From the IMG/VR virus record IMGVR_UViG_2562617147_000003, positions 1-64,000 of that record: a stretch of 64,000 nucleotides of DNA; one strand, 5' to 3'. The notes below the pieces were generated by a model. It made no database searches, had not been told where the DNA came from, and saw only the letters and a list, made by a program, of their open reading frames with translations. Numbering within the stretch: the stretch's first letter is position 1; the number at the start of each line of letters is the position of its first letter. This stretch comes from a virus (lineage: Duplodnaviria > Caudoviricetes). The position numbers and the translations under genes are program-made. Shown in pieces: positions 7,559-64,000 of the stretch.

Positions 7559-8110
7559 ATGAGCCAAAACGTTGAAAACCCGCAGACCCCGGCCAACGGC
7601 CTGTATGTGGGCGAAATCCGCCTGCTGCCCTTTCGGCATGACGAATTGCCCTTCGGCTGGCACTTCTGCAACGGCGAGCGCTTTCTGCTCACCTCGCCCC
7701 AGGGCGAAGTCCTGAGCGGCCTTTCCGAGAACTTCCGCGCCGACTGGGGCCTGGAGGAAGATCTGTGCAGCATCAGCCTGCCCAACCTGTTCCACGAGGA
7801 CGGGCGCGGCTGCTTCTTGCGGCCCGTGGACGGCCTGACGCGGCAGGTGGGCGCGGTGGAAGGGGATGCCATCCGGAATATCACGGGCGAGCTTTCCGAT
7901 GACTCGGCCTATGGTCCCCTGCTGGCCGTGAACGTCCCGGAAGATCCGAACAGTGCCATCTATGCGAAACAGAAAGGCAAGGGCGCTTCTCTCAACGGGT
8001 CCAACGGTTGCTGCAACCTCTACTTCGACGCCTCGCGCGTGGTGCCCACGGCCCCGGAAAACCGCCCCCTGAACCTGGGCATGACGCCTGCCATTTACCT
8101 GGGGGTGTAA
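7559..8110 (+). CDS. phage tail-collar domain protein
   Basis: VGEIRLLPF..GWHFCNGE...SLPNL..GDAIRNITG...VVPTAPENRPLN; AAGGAG RBS. Confidence 0.8.
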   Translation: MSQNVENPQTPANGLYVGEIRLLPFRHDELPFGWHFCNGERFLLTSPQGEVLSGLSENFRADWGLEEDLCSISLPNLFHEDGRGCFLRPVDGLTRQVGAVEGDAIRNITGELSDDSAYGPLLAVNVPEDPNSAIYAKQKGKGASLNGSNGCCNLYFDASRVVPTAPENRPLNLGMTPAIYLGV

Positions 8111-8523: not shown

Positions 8524-10197
8524 GTGATTCTCCGCCCCTATCAACAAGCAATGGTCAAGCGCGCCGTGGACGCACTGGCCGCGCGCGGCAACACTCTGGC
8601 CGTGGGCAGCACCGGCTGCGGAAAGACCATTATCTTGTCCGCCGTGGCCGGAAAGATCGGCGGCAAGCAGTGTGTGCTCCAGCACCGGGACGAGCTGGCA
8701 GCCCAGAACCTGCGCAAGTTCCGCGCCGTGAACCCCAGTCGCTCCACAAGCCTGTACACCGCCGACGCCAAGAGCTGGCGCGGAGACACCACTTTCGCCA
8801 TGACGCAGACCTTGACGCGGCATTTGTCCTCCATTCCCAAGCTGGACGCTCTGATCATCGACGAGGCGCACCACGCCGCCGCCGCCGGTTATCTCAAAAT
8901 AGTGGAGGCCGTGAAGGACAAAAACCCGGACTGCAAAATTTTCGGCGTCACGGCCACGCCCGCGCGCGGCGACGGCAAGGGCCTGCGCGCCGTGTTCGAC
9001 AACTGCTGCGACCAGATCAGTCTGCACAGCCTTGTGGCCATGGGCTTTCTGGTCAAGCCGCGTACCTTCGTCTGCACCTTGGGCGGCACGGACGAAAAGC
9101 TGGCCTCGCTGCGCAAGACCCGTTCCGGCGAGTACGACATGCACAAGGCCGCCGAGGTGCTGGACCTGGCCGTACACAACGAAGCCGTGGTGCGCGAATG
9201 GCGCAAGCTGGCAGGAGACCGCAAAACCATTGTTTTTTGCTCCACCGTGGAGCACGCCCGCCATGTGCTGGAAGCCTTTCTGGCCCAGGGGGCGCGCGCC
9301 GCGCTGGTCACCGGCGACATGCCCGCCGGTGAGCGCAAGGCCCTGCTGGAGCGTTTCGATAGAGTGGACGCGGCCAACGGCGTGCAAGTGCTGGTCAACG
9401 TGGCCGTGCTTACGGAAGGCTACGACAGCCAGCCGGTGAGCTGCGTGGTGCTGCTGCGGCCCTGCTCGCAGAAATCTACCATGCTCCAGATGATCGGCCG
9501 GGGCCTGCGTACTGTTGACCCGGCGATCTATCCCGGCGTGGTCAAGAAAGACTGCATCGTGCTGGATTTCGGGCGCTCCCTGGTCACGCACGGCGACATG
9601 GAAAGCAAGGTGCGCCTGGACGACAAGCCGAAAACCTGTCCCGAGTGCGGGGCGGAGATTCCTCGCGGAGTCATGGAATGCCCCATCTGCGGCCATGCCT
9701 TCAAAGCGCCGGCACGGGGCGCGGGCGGCGATCCTGACGGCGAGGACGGCCCTGAGGCCGTGAGTAACGTGTCCATGGAGGAAGTGGACCTGCTCAACGC
9801 CTCACCGTTCCGCTGGTGCGATATCTTCGGCTCCGGCAAGGTCATGCTGGCCAGTGGTTTTGAAGCCTGGAGCGCAGTGTGTTCGGCCGATGGGGATGCC
9901 TGGCTGGCCTTGGGCAGGCTCAAGGGAGAAGGCGGACTGCGGCGTCTGGCCGTGGGCGAACGCATCCCGGCTCTGGCCGCCGCGGACGATTTTTTGCGCC
10001 TGAACGAAAGCGACGACGCGGCCAAGAAAAATCGCCGCTGGCTCAACGACGCCTGCACGGACAAGCAATGGGGACATTTGCAGCGCCTGGGCTATGGACA
10101 GGGCAACATGCTTTCCTTCACCAAATACAGCGCGGCCTGCACGCTCAATTTTTTCTGGAACCGCGGACTCATTGAAAGGGAGCTTTTGCATGGTTGA
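8524..10197 (+). CDS. SF2 DEAD/DEAH-box helicase with zinc ribbon
   Basis: LRPYQ, TGCGKT, IIDEAHH, GVTATP, LTEGYD, QMIGRGLR; CPECG..CPICG. Confidence 0.93.
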   Translation: MILRPYQQAMVKRAVDALAARGNTLAVGSTGCGKTIILSAVAGKIGGKQCVLQHRDELAAQNLRKFRAVNPSRSTSLYTADAKSWRGDTTFAMTQTLTRHLSSIPKLDALIIDEAHHAAAAGYLKIVEAVKDKNPDCKIFGVTATPARGDGKGLRAVFDNCCDQISLHSLVAMGFLVKPRTFVCTLGGTDEKLASLRKTRSGEYDMHKAAEVLDLAVHNEAVVREWRKLAGDRKTIVFCSTVEHARHVLEAFLAQGARAALVTGDMPAGERKALLERFDRVDAANGVQVLVNVAVLTEGYDSQPVSCVVLLRPCSQKSTMLQMIGRGLRTVDPAIYPGVVKKDCIVLDFGRSLVTHGDMESKVRLDDKPKTCPECGAEIPRGVMECPICGHAFKAPARGAGGDPDGEDGPEAVSNVSMEEVDLLNASPFRWCDIFGSGKVMLASGFEAWSAVCSADGDAWLALGRLKGEGGLRRLAVGERIPALAAADDFLRLNESDDAAKKNRRWLNDACTDKQWGHLQRLGYGQGNMLSFTKYSAACTLNFFWNRGLIERELLHG

Positions 10198-55829: not shown

Positions 55830-57017
55830 AAAGAGAAAAATGAAGAACCCGCCCATTACTGCATCATGCGGCGGCGCTCATCCAGATATAGGGCATGGTT
55901 ATATGCGCGCCGCACACTGTCGCGTTCCCCCGTGGGCGAGTTGTGCCTCGATAATGTCCGACCTGTACCCTTGTTCGTTGAGCAGAGTAGAAGCCATGCT
56001 CCGGAAACCATGAATTGTCATCTCCCCCTTAGTGTAGCCCATACGCCGCAGCGCATTGAGCAGGCCCATATTCGACATGCAACGGGTCATGGTGAAGGGG
56101 GAGGGAAACAGCAGCAGGGATCGCCCCGAATATTCGCGTAGGGATTCAAGCAGTTCTAATACTTGCCGGGCCAGCGGCACAATATGGGGGCGGCGCATCT
56201 TCATGCGCCCGGCGGGGATGAGCCACTCAGCCCTGGCAATGTCTATCTCTGCCCACGCGGCCCCGCGCAACTCAACGGAGCGGACGAAAAGGTAGGGGAG
56301 GGTTTGCAACGCATGGCGGGTTACAGGGTCGCCCTGATAGCCGTCGATGGCTTGGAGCAGCCGTCCTATGGCTGCCGGGTCGGTTATCGTTGCGTGGTGC
56401 CTGTCTTTGGGGATTGGGGGCAAAGCTTCGTGCAGGCCCGCCGCAACGTCGAATTTTGCATATCCGACAATCCGAGCATATCTGCAAATTTTCCCCATAA
56501 GTTGGGTCAACCTATGAGACATTTCAACAGCACCCCGGCTCTGTGTGTGCCGGACCGCTTCAAGGATATGAGCAGGCTCCAGGGTTGCAAAGGGGATGCT
56601 TCCAATGAACGGGAAGATATGATTTTCCAACCGTGAGAGCAGTTGTTTTTTATAGCCCTCGGTCAATTGTGTTGTCTTTGTCGCAAACCACTCGCGCGCC
56701 ACGGTTTCAAATGTCCTGGTTTTTTCTTCCGCAATGACAACGGCGGCGGCTTTGACTTCCTTTTTGTGCTCGCTAGGGTCTACGCCGTGGGCCAGCAAGG
56801 TTCGCGCCTCATCCCGCCGCTTGCGGGCCTCTTTCAAAGAAATGTCTGGATACACGCCTAGGGCCAACGTTTTTTGCTTGCCGCCGAAGCGATATGCCAA
56901 GCGCCAATACTTCCCGCCCTTGGCGTAGACATGGATATAACGCCCGCCGCCGTCCGCCTTTTTCAGTGTGCGGCCCGTGGCCTTCAATCCCCTCAACAGC
57001 GTGTCTGACAGTGCCAT
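55830..57017 (-). pseudogene. P4-like integrase with arm domain, frameshifted before the catalytic Tyr
   Basis: DGGG..YRFGGKQKTLALGVYP; R..E, HGFR, LAH motifs; extra G at 55927-31 diverts the frame from ...VRRAYNH...; in-frame TAA at 55856-58. Confidence 0.85.
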
Positions 57018-57196: not shown

Positions 57197-57261
57197 TGGC
57201 GGGGACGCATAGGAGTCGAACCTACCGCAGACCGTAAAGCCTGCCACCGGTTTTGAAGACC
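57197..57261 (-). tRNA. selC: 3' 65 nt of tRNA-Sec (selC fragment, att site)
   Basis: GGTCTTCAAAACC (UCA anticodon), long variable arm, GGTTCGACTCC, CGCCA end; D-arm and 5' acceptor strand absent. Confidence 0.85.
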
Positions 57262-57333: not shown

Positions 57334-58197
57334 ATGCTTACGTTAGATGAAGCCTGGAACAGCTATCTTGCGACCCGCCACCTGACCCCATACGGGTATT
57401 TGACGGATATGAGCCGTTACCGTGTCCATCTGCAAACTTATTGGCACGGAAAAACTCTAACGTCAATAAAAACCCTGGATATTCAATTTTATACAAACCA
57501 CCTGTTTGAGAAAGGACTTTCTCCGCAAACCGTCAGGCTATGCCTTGGCCAGTTGCGGCGCATCATGCGTCGCGCTCATCGGTTAGGGCTACTGGAAGGC
57601 CAACTGCCATATTTTGAAATGCCCCCAGCCGACAGCGTGCGTTACCGTTATCTTGAGCCGGAGGAGGCCACTAGTCTTTTGCAGGTGTTACGCAATCTCT
57701 CTCAGCTTTGGCATGACATAGCCTTGCTTTCTCTTAATACAGGAATGCGGGCGAGTGAGATTTTTTCTTTGCGTGGAGCCAATATAAATGTTCCACAAGA
57801 GAATATTATTTTGCATAAAACAAAAAATCTCAAGCAGCGTATTGTTCCATTGAATAGTCCATCCCTAAACATTGTAAAAAAATATCATAGAAAAAATGCA
57901 GAGCTTCTTTTTCATCAGGAAGAAAGCTCTAATAAGCAATTTGTAAAAATATCAAAAAAATTCAGAAGAGCAGTTGAGATAAGCGGATTAAATGAAGGCA
58001 TTATAGATAATCGTTATCGTGTTGTTTTTCATACTCTACGTCATACATTTGCAAGTTGGCTTGTGCAGCGTGGAGTATCATTGCAGGTTGTCAGCAATCT
58101 TTTAGGACACAGCTCTGTTCGCGTAACTGAACGCTATGCGCATCTTGCGCCGGATCAAGGCCGAAATGCTCTTAAATTTTTGCCTTGTATTTCATAG
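57334..58197 (+). CDS. tyrosine recombinase (Rci/HP1-like)
   Basis: TGMRASE, TKNLKQRIVPL, HTLRHTFASW, LGH...YAH; all catalytic residues present. Confidence 0.92.
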   Translation: MLTLDEAWNSYLATRHLTPYGYLTDMSRYRVHLQTYWHGKTLTSIKTLDIQFYTNHLFEKGLSPQTVRLCLGQLRRIMRRAHRLGLLEGQLPYFEMPPADSVRYRYLEPEEATSLLQVLRNLSQLWHDIALLSLNTGMRASEIFSLRGANINVPQENIILHKTKNLKQRIVPLNSPSLNIVKKYHRKNAELLFHQEESSNKQFVKISKKFRRAVEISGLNEGIIDNRYRVVFHTLRHTFASWLVQRGVSLQVVSNLLGHSSVRVTERYAHLAPDQGRNALKFLPCIS

Positions 58198-59310: not shown

Positions 59311-59637
59311 ATGCCGGAAGAAAAGAAGCCCAAACGCACGGAACGGCTACAAGCCTATGTGACGCCGGAGGAGTTCACTCTTATCATGGAGTCCAGCGAC
59401 CGGGCCGGGCTGAGCATGTCGGAGTTCGCCCGGCGTGTGTGTCTGGGCTTCCGGGTGGAGAGCCGGGAGGACCAGCAGGCCCGGCGGGAGCTGCTGAAGG
59501 TCAACGCCGATCTGGGGCGGCTGGGCGGCCTGCTCAAGCAGGCTCTGGCCACCGGCCATAAGGAGCAGATTTACGGACTGCTCCATAAGATTGATCAGCT
59601 TCAGGCAAGCCTGAAGGCCAGGATCAGGGCGCTATGA
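59311..59637 (+). CDS. MobC/TraJ-like relaxosome protein
   Basis: RHH-like V..EE..I...AGLSMSEFARR..G...ELLKVNADLGRLGGLLK. Confidence 0.85.
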   Translation: MPEEKKPKRTERLQAYVTPEEFTLIMESSDRAGLSMSEFARRVCLGFRVESREDQQARRELLKVNADLGRLGGLLKQALATGHKEQIYGLLHKIDQLQASLKARIRAL

Positions 59638-61469
59638 TCAGCAAGCGGATTCCGTGTGCCCCTAAAAATGATAACTACGCCCGGCTGGCAAATTACATTG
59701 CCGCCGGGCGTGAACATGACATGCAGCAGGAGTTTAGCGATGGACAACGGCACTATGATCCGCAGCGCCACTTTGAAACAGGTCAAGGCATTGCCGGAAA
59801 CCGCATGCGTCGGCTGTCCGAATGCCGTCTGGCATCTTACTCGCAAGGACAGGAAAGAGGAGCTGCGGATTTTCTGCCTGCTGATGCACGCCTTGATCGA
59901 CGCGCCGATGGCGGCGTGCGACGGCACGCTGATCTTCCCGAAGATGTAAAACCTGAAAAATGCCTCATGAGCTGGTGCGCCGGGTGCTGGGCCGGGGACG
60001 ATTACGAGCTGGCCATCCAGGAAGTGGCCGATACCCAGGCGCTTAATACGCGCACCACCCAGGAGAAAACCTATCATCTGATTGTGAGTTTCCGGCCGGA
60101 AGATGAAACCAGGCTGACGCCGGAAACATTCAAGGCCATTGAGGAACGCTTTGCCCTGGCTTTGGGGCTATCGGAACATCAGCGGCATTGCGGCGTCCAC
60201 GTCAACACGGAAAACATGCACATGCACGTCGCTTATAATCTGATCCACCCGGAAAAGCTGACGCGCGTGGAGCCCTGGCGGGACTATATCAAGCGCGACA
60301 AGCTCTGCCGGGAGTTGGAGAAGGAATACGGCCTTGTCATCGACAACGGCCGGGATAAGGCCCAGGAACAGGGCCTTGGTGAAAGGGCCGCAACCGTGGA
60401 GGCGCACACCGGCCGACAGTCTTTTGAGGGCTACGCGCGCGACCAGGGCGAGGCCATTCTGGCCATATTGGAAAATGCGCGTTCCTGGGAGGACGTGCAT
60501 TGCGCCTTTGCCCGGCATGGCCTGGAGCTGAAGCCGCGCGGGGCCGGACTTGTGGTCAAGGACCGACATGGGCGGCACATGGCCAAGGCCAGCGCCGTGC
60601 ATCGGGATTTATCCCGGAAGAAGCTGGAAGCCCGGTTTGGAGCCTTCCAGCCATCCAGGGGAGCAATGCCGGAAAGCGAACGACGCTACGGCGCTGATCC
60701 GCTTCAGAAGGCACCGAACCGGAATCAGCTCTGGCAGGAGTTCCAGGAACAGCGCCAGGTCCAAAAAATAGGCCTGGAAGATATCCGCCGGAAGTGGGAG
60801 CAACAGCGCATGGACTTGCAGCGCAGGCCCATAGCGCGCAGGACCAGGGCTAATCTTATGAAAATGGTCCGCCAGTATGAAGCGGAAGAAATCCACGCCG
60901 CGCGCGTGAACCAGGGCGCGGGCAACTGGCTTGATTTTTTGCGGCAGAAAGCCGCCCAAGGCGACGAAACCGCCCTGGCCGTCTTACGCTCCAGAAAAGA
61001 GGAAATCGCGCCGGAGATAACGCAGAGTCGCATGCAGGCCCGCGCGGCCTATCTGGCCAGCAAGACTGCAATCCTGGAGAATGCCGAGCTTTCCACCAAA
61101 ACAAAAAACCGCCTCATCAGCGTCGCACTGATGGAGAGCCTGGCCAGTGGAACCACGGCCAGGATCAGCAAGCTCGGCAGTATCATCTATACGCTCCCCG
61201 ATGGCGGGAAAATTTGCGACACCGGGCGCAGCATCAGCTTCAGCGACGGGGCCAGGGAAACGGCCCTGGATTATATGACTGCCAAGTGGAGCGTAAAGCG
61301 AAGGCGGGTGTCTCTGGACAGGGACACAGGCGATCTCGTGTACACGCTGGACAGTGGCCAGAAGATCTATGAGCGGAAGGGGCGGAATGTCTTTGAACGG
61401 CCCGCCGTTGTCCACCGGCAGCGCCAGTTGGAGCGGGAGCGGCCCAGGAACCAGGGTATGGAGCGGTAA
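59634..61469 (+). CDS. MOBP (RP4 TraI-like) relaxase
   Basis: NYARLANYI, TYHLIVSFRP, HQR..VH.NTENMHMHVAYN.IHP. Confidence 0.9.
   Translation: MISKRIPCAPKNDNYARLANYIAAGREHDMQQEFSDGQRHYDPQRHFETGQGIAGNRMRRLSECRLASYSQGQERGAADFLPADARLDRRADGGVRRHADLPEDVKPEKCLMSWCAGCWAGDDYELAIQEVADTQALNTRTTQEKTYHLIVSFRPEDETRLTPETFKAIEERFALALGLSEHQRHCGVHVNTENMHMHVAYNLIHPEKLTRVEPWRDYIKRDKLCRELEKEYGLVIDNGRDKAQEQGLGERAATVEAHTGRQSFEGYARDQGEAILAILENARSWEDVHCAFARHGLELKPRGAGLVVKDRHGRHMAKASAVHRDLSRKKLEARFGAFQPSRGAMPESERRYGADPLQKAPNRNQLWQEFQEQRQVQKIGLEDIRRKWEQQRMDLQRRPIARRTRANLMKMVRQYEAEEIHAARVNQGAGNWLDFLRQKAAQGDETALAVLRSRKEEIAPEITQSRMQARAAYLASKTAILENAELSTKTKNRLISVALMESLASGTTARISKLGSIIYTLPDGGKICDTGRSISFSDGARETALDYMTAKWSVKRRRVSLDRDTGDLVYTLDSGQKIYERKGRNVFERPAVVHRQRQLERERPRNQGMER
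59740..59949 (+). CDS. overprinted 69-aa Cys-rich ORF inside the relaxase gene
   Basis: AGGAG RBS; CVGCPNAVW..FCLLMH..ACDG; spans the non-conserved insertion of the relaxase. Confidence 0.55.
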   Translation: MDNGTMIRSATLKQVKALPETACVGCPNAVWHLTRKDRKEELRIFCLLMHALIDAPMAACDGTLIFPKM

Positions 61470-61881: not shown

Positions 61882-62190
61882 TTGCCGGGCGTGGGTTTGC
61901 CTGCTAGGCTGACCCGGCACGGCTACCCTCTGGCCTGAAAGCGTCGGCACGGCGCAAACGGAAAAAGGAGGGCACAGCCATGCGGAAACTTGTTTTCGCT
62001 CTGCTTGTCGCTGTGGCCCTGGTCCTCTTACTGACGTCTGACGCCAGATAAGAGTTGACCCCGGCCCATTAGCGGTGGGCCGGGGTCGAAAAAAGGAAAC
62101 CGTGTCGGTAGCCGTGCACGGGGGCGCTAACCGCGCCGTGCCAGCCCCGGTATCTGTCCCCACAGATGCCGGGGTTCCCTTTTTAGATAA
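61882..62190 (+). other. structured transcription unit A (type I toxin-like)
   Basis: TTGCCG-17-TAGGCT promoter, leader repeats, RBS, peptide, hairpin, complementary 3' segments, terminator. Confidence 0.75.
61980..62051 (+). CDS. 23-aa hydrophobic peptide MRKLVFALLVAVALVLLLTSDAR
   Basis: AAGGAGG RBS; basic N-terminus + single TM helix. Confidence 0.75.
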   Translation: MRKLVFALLVAVALVLLLTSDAR

Positions 62191-62298
62191 GGCAGTAGCG
62201 GGTGAATGTCCAGCCCGGCCTAGCGGGCTCAGACCCAATTTATATTGTGCAATATAAATTCAACAGGCAATAGACTTGGCAATGTAGCCGCCCTTTAG

Positions 62299-62697
62299 TT
62301 GATCCGTACCCACCTTGTGCCTGTCCAGGGTGGGCAAGACACGTTAGCCTACCCGGAACTGTTCGTTCTTATGGGCAGCCAGGTGCCGGATTTGAGGGGG
62401 CTGTTTCTGCGTGGGCACGGGGGCAAGAGCGCTGCTCTGGGAGTCCAGCAGGGCGACGCTATACGGAATATTACTGGTGGCTTTGTCCCAGGCAATCAAT
62501 ATGCAAACGCGGGCATTAAAAACACTTCAGGGATCTTTCGACCTGGAGGAGCCTTTGGACGCAATGACTTCCGGGAATCAGGAGCAAACAGCTCCCCGGA
62601 TGAAGTTATTCTCGACGCATCCCTACAAGTGCCCACAGCCGAGGAAACTCGCCCGGTGAATCTGGCTGTGCGCTACCTGATCCGCGCCAAGCCCTGA
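62299..62697 (+). CDS. headless tail-collar cassette 1
   Basis: AYPELF..QVPDLRGLFLRGHGG..GDAIRNITG..PTAEETRPVNLAVRYLIRAKP. Confidence 0.75.
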   Translation: MIRTHLVPVQGGQDTLAYPELFVLMGSQVPDLRGLFLRGHGGKSAALGVQQGDAIRNITGGFVPGNQYANAGIKNTSGIFRPGGAFGRNDFRESGANSSPDEVILDASLQVPTAEETRPVNLAVRYLIRAKP

Positions 62698-62722
62698 TGC
62701 TTGCCAAACAGGCATGGAGACG

Positions 62723-63036
62723 TTATCTAAAAAGGGAACCCCGGCCCCTGCGCGAACAGGAACCGGGGCTGGCACGGCGCGGTTAGCGCCCCCGTGCACG
62801 ACTACCGCAGCGTTTTTACCTACGGCCCCGTATCAGGTGTAAGCTGATACGGGGCCAGCCTCATCTAAGGCCGACTATCGCCCCGCAACAGCAGGGCGAG
62901 AAGTACCAGCAACACCAAGACGGCAAAGCGTCTCATGTGATGGCACCCCCTTTGATAGTTTGCGCCGTGCCGGGCGCAGATCAGGAAGGGGGTAGCCGTG
63001 CCCGTTCCTTATATCCACATTCATCCCGCCCGGCAA
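62723..63036 (-). other. structured transcription unit B (inverted paralog of A)
   Basis: TTGCCG-17-TATAAG promoter; same scaffold as A with different hairpin sequences. Confidence 0.75.
62865..62936 (-). CDS. 23-aa hydrophobic peptide MRRFAVLVLLVLLALLLRGDSRP
   Basis: AAGGGGG RBS; same length and position as the peptide in unit A. Confidence 0.75.
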   Translation of the reverse strand: MRRFAVLVLLVLLALLLRGDSRP

Positions 63037-63408
63037 CGCTTTGCCGAGCAACACGGCGCGTACCCGGAACTGTCCGCGCTTCTCGGCGGCCAAGTGCCGG
63101 ATTTGAGGGGCTTGTTCCTGCGTGGCCACGGGGGGAACAGCGCTGAATTAGGCTCACCTCAGGGGCATGCCATGCGCGACATATCTTCAGCGGGCAGCAT
63201 CAGCGTAGGGTTCGGAGGGTATCTGACAGGAAATGGGATTTTTAAGCCTGTTGGTAGTCATGGCGTGGTTGTCATTAGGGGCTCGTGGGACGGCAATTGG
63301 GGGAGCACTGCTTATGGACTTGATCTTTCTGCCGGTGGTGTACCTGTGGCCAATGAGGTTCGGCCTGACAACCAAGCGGTACGATTTTTAGTCCGCGCCC
63401 GCCCGTGA
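62998..63408 (+). CDS. headless tail-collar cassette 2
   Basis: AYPELS..QVPDLRGLFLRGHGG...EVRPDNQAVRFLVRARP. Confidence 0.75.
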   Translation: MPVPYIHIHPARQRFAEQHGAYPELSALLGGQVPDLRGLFLRGHGGNSAELGSPQGHAMRDISSAGSISVGFGGYLTGNGIFKPVGSHGVVVIRGSWDGNWGSTAYGLDLSAGGVPVANEVRPDNQAVRFLVRARP

Positions 63409-63590
63409 ATTATGCTCTCCGCGTGCCACCCGGATTTTTGGTCAGAGTCCGGGTGACTCGCAGGAGTAACACGAATGACCTTGCAGTCGCTGATCCGGAA
63501 CCAGGTCGGCCGATTCGCTAACTCGCTGAAATTTAAGATGGTGAGATTTTAGGCCAGTAGCACGAAATTACAAAATCCCATCCCATTTCC

Positions 63591-63980
63591 TTATGGCCGG
63601 GCGCGGACAAGGTACCTAACCGCCTGATTGGCAGGGCGATTTTCTTCAGCGGTCGGAACGACACGAGAGAGGTCAAAGCCGACGCCATTACCGGACCAAG
63701 TACCGTAAGAGCTGCGAATATCTTCAGCGCATCCGCCCGTGCGATAGAAAACCCCACCGGCTGAAGCGGAACCGTGTTGGCCGAAACTGCCGGTTATATT
63801 TCGTATGGCGTCACCTTGCCGGACGCCCAGCGCTGCCGAGTCGCCCCCGTGACCACGAAGAAACAGCCCCCGCAGATCGGGCACCTGGCCGCCCACAACC
63901 GCGAACAGTTCCGGGTACGCGCGGGGCTGACTGGCAAAGCGTTGCCGGGCGAGAAGAATCCAGATATAAGAAGCGGACAC
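63591..63980 (-). CDS. headless tail-collar cassette 3
   Basis: AYPELF..QVPDLRGLFLRGHGG..GDAIRNITG..PTAEENRPANQAVRYLVRARP. Confidence 0.75.
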   Translation of the reverse strand: MSASYIWILLARQRFASQPRAYPELFAVVGGQVPDLRGLFLRGHGGDSAALGVRQGDAIRNITGSFGQHGSASAGGVFYRTGGCAEDIRSSYGTWSGNGVGFDLSRVVPTAEENRPANQAVRYLVRARP

Positions 63981-64000
63981 GGCTACCCCCTATGCGTCGG
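63942..64000 (+). other. 5' end of structured unit C (runs off the window)
   Basis: TTGCCG-17-TATAAG, then CACGGCTACCC...GCGTCGG as in unit A. Confidence 0.65.

Follow-up and report, generated by a model that had tools for sequence, protein, structure and literature searches.

The window analysed here, bases 1–64000 of the 74,045-bp IMG/VR ‘provirus’ record IMGVR_UViG_2562617147_000003 (identical DNA: GCA_000145315.2, contig ADDR02000002.1), carries close to its right-hand end three incomplete collar genes, cassettes A, B and C, on a ~17-kb island at the tRNA-Sec gene (selC) of a human-gut Desulfovibrio. Together with gene E, a complete collar gene lying beyond the window, these cassettes probably form a shufflon-type multiple-inversion switch on a mobilizable island, in which they serve as spare tips for a secreted collar protein. 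In the proposed mechanism E would be the single expressed gene and A, B and C would be promoterless alternatives, each running from a YPEL motif to a stop codon. If the box of E recombined reciprocally with that of an inverted cassette, the intervening DNA would flip, so that a new tip would be joined to the constant N-terminal part and the old tip parked on the ‘head’ of the cassette, and the directly oriented cassette C would become reachable after one such flip. The exchange would be site-specific, at a 12–13-bp core, and carried out by a tyrosine recombinase.

Cassettes A, B and C and the expression gene E

The features of the array are listed below, with window numbering continued past position 64000.

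62299–62697, + strand: silent cassette A; box from 62350; inverted relative to E and the cassette farthest from it
62998–63408, + strand: silent cassette B; box from 63061; inverted relative to E; head a decayed remnant of the collar N-half
63591–63980, − strand: silent cassette C; box from 63917 (− strand); oriented like E and the cassette nearest to it
64283–64852 (L010:4283–4852), − strand: gene E, 189 amino acids (aa); lies 283 bp beyond the window; box from 64615 (− strand)
64880–65407, − strand: p175, a 175-aa signal-peptide protein, 27 nt upstream of E

The three cassette open reading frames (ORFs) lie where the original prediction had placed them, and all contain TACCCGGAACTG, a 12-mer coding for Y-P-E-L that is found exactly at 62350–61 (+), 63061–72 (+) and 63906–17 (−). 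Three matches in the 64-kb window compare with 0.22 expected, a number reached in 0 of 100 shuffles. Similarity among the cassettes begins at the 12-mer and extends for ~120–140 nt, over which the copies are 76–78% alike. The divergent middles and the conserved RP.N.AVR..RA.P end noticed earlier were both borne out, the middles being unrelated and the last ~15 codons conserved. The cassettes are headless and encode 129–136 aa that cover the C-terminal two thirds of the collar protein. As had been claimed, they lack the N-terminal collar part: this missing half of the domain keeps all three from reaching the Pfam Collar family at an E-value of 0.01 or below. When the cassette B protein was looked up by exact sequence, no match was on record. 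The arrangement characteristic of a shufflon, a full gene with shorter promoterless 3’ copies that share repeats within the coding sequence and of which at least one is inverted, is present.

The 19-mer CGCCCGGCAACGCTTTGCC also occurs exactly as described, at 63027–45 (+) and 63933–51 (−), with two matches versus 0.01 expected. It belongs to a longer inverted repeat of 197 nt, which arises from the homology between the heads of B and C; at the protein level both heads are decayed remnants of the collar N-half.

Inspection of the sequence beyond 64000, where the constant part of an adhesin or fibre had been predicted to lie, revealed the full-length gene E with a fourth copy of the 12-mer at 64604–64615 (−). 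The homology of E with A, B and C begins exactly there; A and B are oriented opposite to E and C runs in the same direction. The predicted constant part was therefore found, although a PilV-like character was not, E being composed of a Sec leader and a collar. The protein consists of a Sec-type signal peptide, a ~25-aa conserved segment and a complete collar domain; the signal peptide was recognised by eye, residues 2–20 being helical in the AlphaFold model. Collar (PF07484) is the sole Pfam match (E-value 9e-11, 42 bits versus a cut-off of 24), the PilV N-terminal domain Shufflon_N being absent at E-values up to 1. A profile built from 36 family members and compared with the PDB matched the short tail fibre 9cuy (E-value 4e-33) and, over residues 45–186, the receptor-binding domain of T4 gp12 (1OCY, E-value 8e-9), and this profile told more about the fold of E than did Foldseek. 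The collar of gp12 is in two halves, with the receptor-binding head inserted between them. Therefore, what the cassettes hold is the whole variable head, preceded by the second half of the collar and followed by the closing strand, and by this analogy the cassette-borne part is exactly what would set binding specificity.

Gene E is the last gene in a same-strand cluster comprising rep, traL, trbJ, trbL … p175 and E. Its neighbours are p175, HNH, TrbL, TrbJ and TraL, and the type IVb operon in which an R64-type PilV resides is not found around it. No match for p175 was found in the ESM Atlas. The family of E has at least 1,372 members, mostly from gut-metagenome Desulfovibrio and Bilophila. A further collar protein in the window (7559–8110, + strand, 183 aa, without a signal peptide) belongs to the prophage and is 41% identical to E over 86 aa, sharing the motifs GDAIRNITG and FDASRVVPTA.ENRP. 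It is presumably the phage’s own fibre tip, outside the shufflon.

Variable parts move between silent and expressed positions in related loci

The comparative set comprised 17 loci with 76 cassettes. The C-type variable part, silent in the present locus, is expressed in P0010, P0018, L018, L019 and L074, and the E-type part, expressed here, is silent in P0068, where it stands behind a B/C-type head. Q-type and I-type parts trade positions among L011, L016 and L077, which have the same island backbone. Between L011 and L077 there is a clean 798-bp inversion bounded by two 12-mers, the segment being 90.7% identical in the inverted register and the upstream flank colinear (95.9%). L075 is a single-crossover recombinant of two cassettes of L074 (the loci are 98.9% identical), with the crossover located between −6 and +37 of the 12-mer. 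In L018, head C of the present locus and its flanking spacer module are joined to variable part B, an arrangement that would be obtainable from the present locus by two box-to-box inversions. Alternative arrangements, expected by the original prediction in sequencing reads or related strains, were found between related strains in the form of the L011/L077 inversion and the re-assorted heads and variable parts.

The orientation of the cassettes follows a common pattern. In all five loci of mixed orientation (the present locus, L016, L021, L025 and the N. vulgaris plasmid pDsulf-L2-2), the cassettes near E are direct and the distal ones inverted, which is what inversions anchored at E predict. 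If orientations were independent and random, the chance of this pattern would be ~1 in 1000 by a rough estimate. A single inversion would convert the present arrangement into the all-inverted state of L011, L018, L074 and L077. The architecture as a whole is kept across at least four element backbones and in Bilophila.

Arrays can be far larger than the present one. L074 has nine cassettes, and the 5599-bp contig of L043 (IMGVR_UViG_3300028454_000183) is taken up nearly in full by headless collar cassettes, at least 14 of them head to tail, which lie ~28 nt apart in one orientation and have very diverse variable parts; both ends of the contig are within a cassette. Eight loci (L028, L030, L021, L025, L026, L019, L082 and L083) have assemblies that break at the box or within the array. 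Arrays and recombinase are consequently usually on separate contigs, and the system is easily missed in draft genomes. At 9735–10358 of L031, a degenerate sister island whose recombinase is 89.5% identical to that of the present island, a truncated cassette abuts a p175 fragment and E has been deleted; from its sequence, L031 is an example of switch loss.

Crossovers map to the box

The crossovers map to the box that begins at the 12-mer. The 19-bp repeat is not supported as the crossover site, as many shuffled cassettes are without the 19-mer and the crossovers fall at the 12-mer box. The homology boundary at the 12-mer is sharp and the heads upstream of it are not conserved, an asymmetry that may parallel the conserved and non-conserved arms of the R64 repeat sfx, although the sequence differs from the 19-bp sfx. 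A dyad-symmetric core CCGGAAC ... GTTCTCGG within the box was also considered and rejected, inspection showing that it is not kept in all cassettes and loci.

Two kinds of exchange could act on such boxes. Homologous recombination or gene conversion of the RecA type, as in sap of Campylobacter fetus or pilE/pilS of Neisseria, would account for boxes that are homogenised within loci and differ at synonymous sites between them; in L021 the boxes are 100% identical over ~75 nt. Deletions between direct boxes do occur, and there is no recombinase gene beside the present array, nor in the stretch of L075 that was examined. However, the 12-mer is the only stretch common to all copies in every locus. 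Little beyond it is identical in the arrays of L043 and L074, where 11–13 nt are common to all copies. In the present locus, perfect identity between the box of E and those of its inverted partners extends over 13 nt for B and at most 23 nt for A, overall identity being 75–84% over 126 nt, and no run other than the 13-nt core is found in all box pairs. The long identical tracts of sap and pilE/pilS are not seen here, and homology so short and mismatched is too little for efficient RecA pairing, for which a minimal homology is needed. A specific recombinase family is tightly linked to arrays elsewhere, and the re-assortment of heads and variable parts reflects reciprocal exchange and not one-way copying alone. 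A RecA-type process is accordingly regarded as unlikely, and the short core would favour a site-specific enzyme.

Candidate recombinases

The original prediction had pointed to an Rci/HP1-like recombinase at 57334 as the possible invertase. This enzyme, here termed YR287, is placed at the left edge of the island by the following features.

57197–57261, strand not assigned: attL, a 65-bp direct repeat identical to the tRNA-Sec 3’ end
57334–58197, + strand: YR287, a 287-aa Xer-like tyrosine recombinase, the sole recombinase inside the island
~74199–74292 (L070:8193–8286), − strand: intact tRNA-Sec gene, beyond the end of the record

The Rci/HP1-like label is not supported, as YR287 is generically Xer-like and falls below every NCBIfam cut-off. 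That YR287 itself is the invertase, perhaps doubling as the integrase, is doubtful. It is kept in every island of this backbone, which has undergone box inversions, and it has weak NCBIfam matches to FimB/FimE-type invertase models (E-value 1e-8). However, its gene stands at the island edge, 72 bp from the selC repeat, in seven loci, six of them on other contigs, and the repeat has no similarity to the cassette boxes above shuffled controls. This edge position and the dissimilarity of repeat and boxes indicate that, on sequence grounds, YR287 is probably the island integrase. Its closest relative among the loci examined (31% identity) is likewise at an island edge, beside a collar gene without cassettes.

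A different family, with only 22–25% identity to YR287, accompanies the arrays of related loci. Its members are tyrosine recombinases of 360–406 aa, and all eight (L074, L026/L081, L082, L083, L084, L085, L091 and the plasmid pDsulf-L2-2) are encoded less than 1 kb from a collar cassette. In L091 and pDsulf-L2-2 the recombinase gene lies between oppositely oriented cassettes. An array-type recombinase is present in five of five genomes with collar loci versus one of 120 other sampled Desulfovibrionaceae (Fisher’s test, 2.6e-8, which ignores relatedness), and in the one ‘other’ genome, too, the gene has cassettes next to it. The possibility that the 406-aa recombinase of L074 is the integrase of a neighbouring element was rejected, as orthologues adjoin arrays or lie within them at seven other sites, one of them on a circular plasmid. 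A search of PLSDB at an E-value of 1e-5 or below with the relatives’ recombinase showed no visible IncI1 matches (Escherichia, Salmonella), an indirect indication that it is not a close homologue of Rci. On the chromosome of D. falkowii (L085, ~622.5–624.6 kb) an array-type recombinase has only a box remnant beside it, and a cassette-less collar gene (L023, ~578 kb) lies ~44 kb away; the pair may be the relic of a large inversion or a decayed array.

In the present locus no rci-like recombinase is directly beside the array, YR287 being 4.1 kb away, as opposed to the relatives, where an enzyme of the other family occupies this place. No serine recombinase (PF00239) was found in the 74-kb record, the control genomes being positive. 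Supply of the 360–406-aa array-type enzyme in trans by a co-resident element is a plausible explanation that falls somewhat short of probable. For this locus, co-resident supply, YR287 acting as a substitute, or a slow copy of the system may each apply.

Selection on silent cassettes

Several features of the cassettes might be expected of decaying, functionless fragments of duplicated collar genes, since they have no start context, signal peptide or N-half, and the related locus L031 is a truncated remnant. The coding sequences say otherwise. Among the 60 silent cassettes free of contig-end cuts, 59 are open from the 12-mer through the conserved C-terminal motif. Strong purifying selection is evident even on modules found only in silent form: the B-type module is silent in four of four loci found, with a ratio of non-synonymous to synonymous polymorphism (pN/pS) of 0.01–0.17 at pS of up to 0.35, a pattern that, as read from these sequences, is expected only if the modules are regularly expressed. 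Identical modules alternate between silent and expressed positions, and fragments in decay would not retain one architecture in at least four backbones and in Bilophila. Decay is thus very improbable, and with a constant gene nearby, rearrangements in relatives and selection on the cassettes, the null offered by the original prediction is largely refuted.

It is equally improbable that E is a polymorphic secreted toxin or bacteriocin, with the cassettes as orphan tips and the 23-aa peptides of the spacer modules as immunity proteins, for although the combination of an unchanging N-part with exchangeable C-terminal cassettes and a small ORF for a hydrophobic peptide superficially resembles orphan modules of the CdiA-CT/CdiI or Rhs systems, the variable part is homologous to a receptor-binding head and not to a toxin domain, the same peptide accompanies different variable types, L043 and L074 are without peptide genes, and the peptide genes converge on the cassettes with their own 5’ region and terminator.

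Weighing the shufflon reading

A number of observations weigh against a switch that is active in the present locus. The array-type recombinase is absent from the 74-kb record, which holds only YR287 and a P4-like integrase. The boxes are less homogenised than those of relatives, with a common core of 13 nt, and the locus could be slow or frozen. Close copies of the A-type variable part occur only in cassette-length proteins and never in an expression site in the databases, its two full-length matches (184 and 195 aa) being only 43–58% identical. The case for switching at this locus is drawn from sequence differences between related strains. At the level of the protein, the AlphaFold monomer of E is mediocre (predicted local distance difference test, pLDDT, 69) and when used with Foldseek gave weak matches only, of which gp12 was the first. 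The suggestion that E would be a surface or pilus-associated adhesin that chooses recipient cells, like PilV of R64, draws on homology and context only. Taken with these points, the inversions, the re-assorted modules and the selection on silent cassettes still make a shufflon-type switch the likely explanation.

Spacer modules between the cassettes

Three modules of ~280 nt are interleaved with the cassettes.

61911–62192, + strand: spacer module 1; structured RNA with a 23-aa hydrophobic ORF (61981–62052) and a terminator hairpin
62723–63007, − strand: spacer module 2; 23-aa ORF (62935–62864, −) and terminator
63978–64000 and on to ~64260, + strand: spacer module 3; 23-aa ORF and a terminator converging on the 3’ end of E

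Module 2 is read towards the 3’ end of cassette A and away from the head of cassette B. In all three a conserved 5’ region, covarying hairpins and a terminator are present, and the 5’ end is complementary to the 3’ end; the fold of the first is much stronger than those of its shuffles (z = −7.15). No Rfam family was matched in 61500–65000. The 23-aa ORF, always found between collar cassettes, has retained its length and C-terminal motif in four backbones (Bilophila included), and the dense arrays of L043 and L074 contain no such modules. By these features the modules look like type I toxin mRNAs of the hok kind. The earlier expectation that inversions would reorient the toxin-like units was borne out.

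A rather improbable further proposal is that the small island, with a switchable receptor-binding protein of its own, retargets the mating apparatus of a helper element. The helper would supply both the secretion machinery and the recombinase in trans, and the modules would be addiction units that penalise the loss of cassettes by deletion between boxes.

Island and transfer context

The island is bounded by a perfect 65-bp repeat, the second copy of which lies at ~74199–74263. From the left its order is attL, YR287, Rha, NikA, the relaxase, a 70-aa membrane protein and the cassettes. On the other strand follow E, p175, HNH, TrbL, TrbJ, TraL, DUF5338, an HTH_36 replication-initiator-like protein, small ORFs and a CI-like repressor, and the tRNA comes last. 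The mobilisation module of the island is as follows.

59634–61469, + strand: MobA/VirD2-type relaxase, preceded by the NikA-like and Rha genes

No VirB4, VirB11 or coupling protein was seen on the island, and therefore, as judged from its gene content, it looks like a mobilizable element. Every context in which collar loci were found is a transfer element, namely TrbJ/TrbL with a relaxase (the present locus), VirD4-TraF-ArdC-TopB-RdgC, DotI/IcmL, or a MobA/RepB plasmid.

Most of the window is taken up by a separate element, the prophage lying to the left of the island. It has its own P4-like integrase beyond the repeat (55899–57017, − strand), which faces the same partial tRNA copy. This places two elements in tandem at selC, and the IMG/VR ‘provirus’ call merges the prophage and the island.

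The transfer genes show insertions of their own. An AT-rich HNH-endonuclease gene lies between trbL and p175 (L010:5732–6586, corresponding to 65732–66586, − strand), and the sister islands L011 and L077 have two HNH genes of different length, indicating a variable insertion hotspot inside the transfer operon. In L064/L065/L066 (the loci L011–L013), at ~11200–17800 in L064, an inserted element cuts the relaxase gene to 129 aa; this element carries a P4-like integrase, an AlpA-like gene and a gene for a 1423-aa protein without a Pfam match.

Comparison with known switching systems

Shufflons are a textbook feature of enterobacterial IncI plasmids, in which mating partners are chosen via PilV. 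The present array resembles the R64/IncI1 shufflon (pilV, sfx, Rci) in having a constant 5’ part with silent 3’ segments in both orientations, nested inversions at short in-coding repeats, a location on a transfer element and a presumed role in recipient recognition. In contrast to R64, thin-pilus genes are absent here and the constant part is something other than a type IV prepilin. A 12–13-bp core of different sequence, with which a 66–125-bp coding box opens, takes the place of the sfx repeat, and no recombinase stands beside this array.

The collar domain itself has a precedent as a variable part. A PilV–tail-collar fusion has been described once as a target of programmed inversion (Milman, Yelin and Kishony 2023, PMC9881135). 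A fusion of this type is found in plasmid pDsulf-L2-2 (NZ_CP116247.1), where an annotated PilV tip adhesin, encoded in a type IVb pilus operon adjoining Dot/Icm-type genes, ends in the collar domain and has its junction likewise at YPEL. The likeness of the present system to these fusions lies in the collar domain as the variable part (46–47% identity) and the YPEL junction and, for pDsulf-L2-2, in the relatives’ recombinase family located between cassettes. There, however, the collar is carried on a 330-aa PilV pilin body in a type IVb operon, whereas here it stands alone behind a Sec signal peptide, accompanied only by TrbJ and TrbL of a P-type system and by the 23-aa peptide modules, with no recombinase in cis.

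Among phages, inversion in Mu (G/Gin) and P1 (C/Cin) also swaps the receptor-binding C-terminus of a fibre, and collar-type tips of tail fibres from E. coli phage-plasmids are 42–43% identical to E. The Mu and P1 systems rely on a serine invertase, offer two alternatives and invert a chaperone gene along with the segment, as compared with four alternatives here (at least 14 cassettes in relatives) for a secreted bacterial protein that is not part of a virion. The homology with T4 gp12 (1OCY) spans the whole mature domain, and in both proteins the variable region is the head between the collar halves; unlike gp12, the 189-aa E has no shaft, does not belong to a phage and is predicted to be a Sec-exported protein. 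Shufflons of hsdS genes in Type I restriction-modification systems, with adjacent tyrosine recombinases, likewise have inverted repeats in conserved coding sequence, silent half-genes and homogenised repeats, and differ in target protein and biological output.

Implications

Beyond the PilV–collar fusion (PMC9881135), no literature on a Desulfovibrio shufflon or on a stand-alone collar shufflon was found. What would be new here is shufflon logic applied to a free-standing, Sec-exported phage receptor-binding tip, a PilV-shufflon-like switch in an undescribed setting. The finding also serves as a warning for annotation, as ‘phage tail protein’ labels on collar genes helped to draw a non-phage island into a ‘provirus’ call. 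The work defines a recombinase family that is tightly linked to collar arrays, and the system occurs on conjugative and mobilizable elements of several kinds in Desulfovibrio and Bilophila, common sulphate- and sulphite-reducers of the gut. It provides a testable handle on the targeting of gene transfer among strict gut anaerobes.

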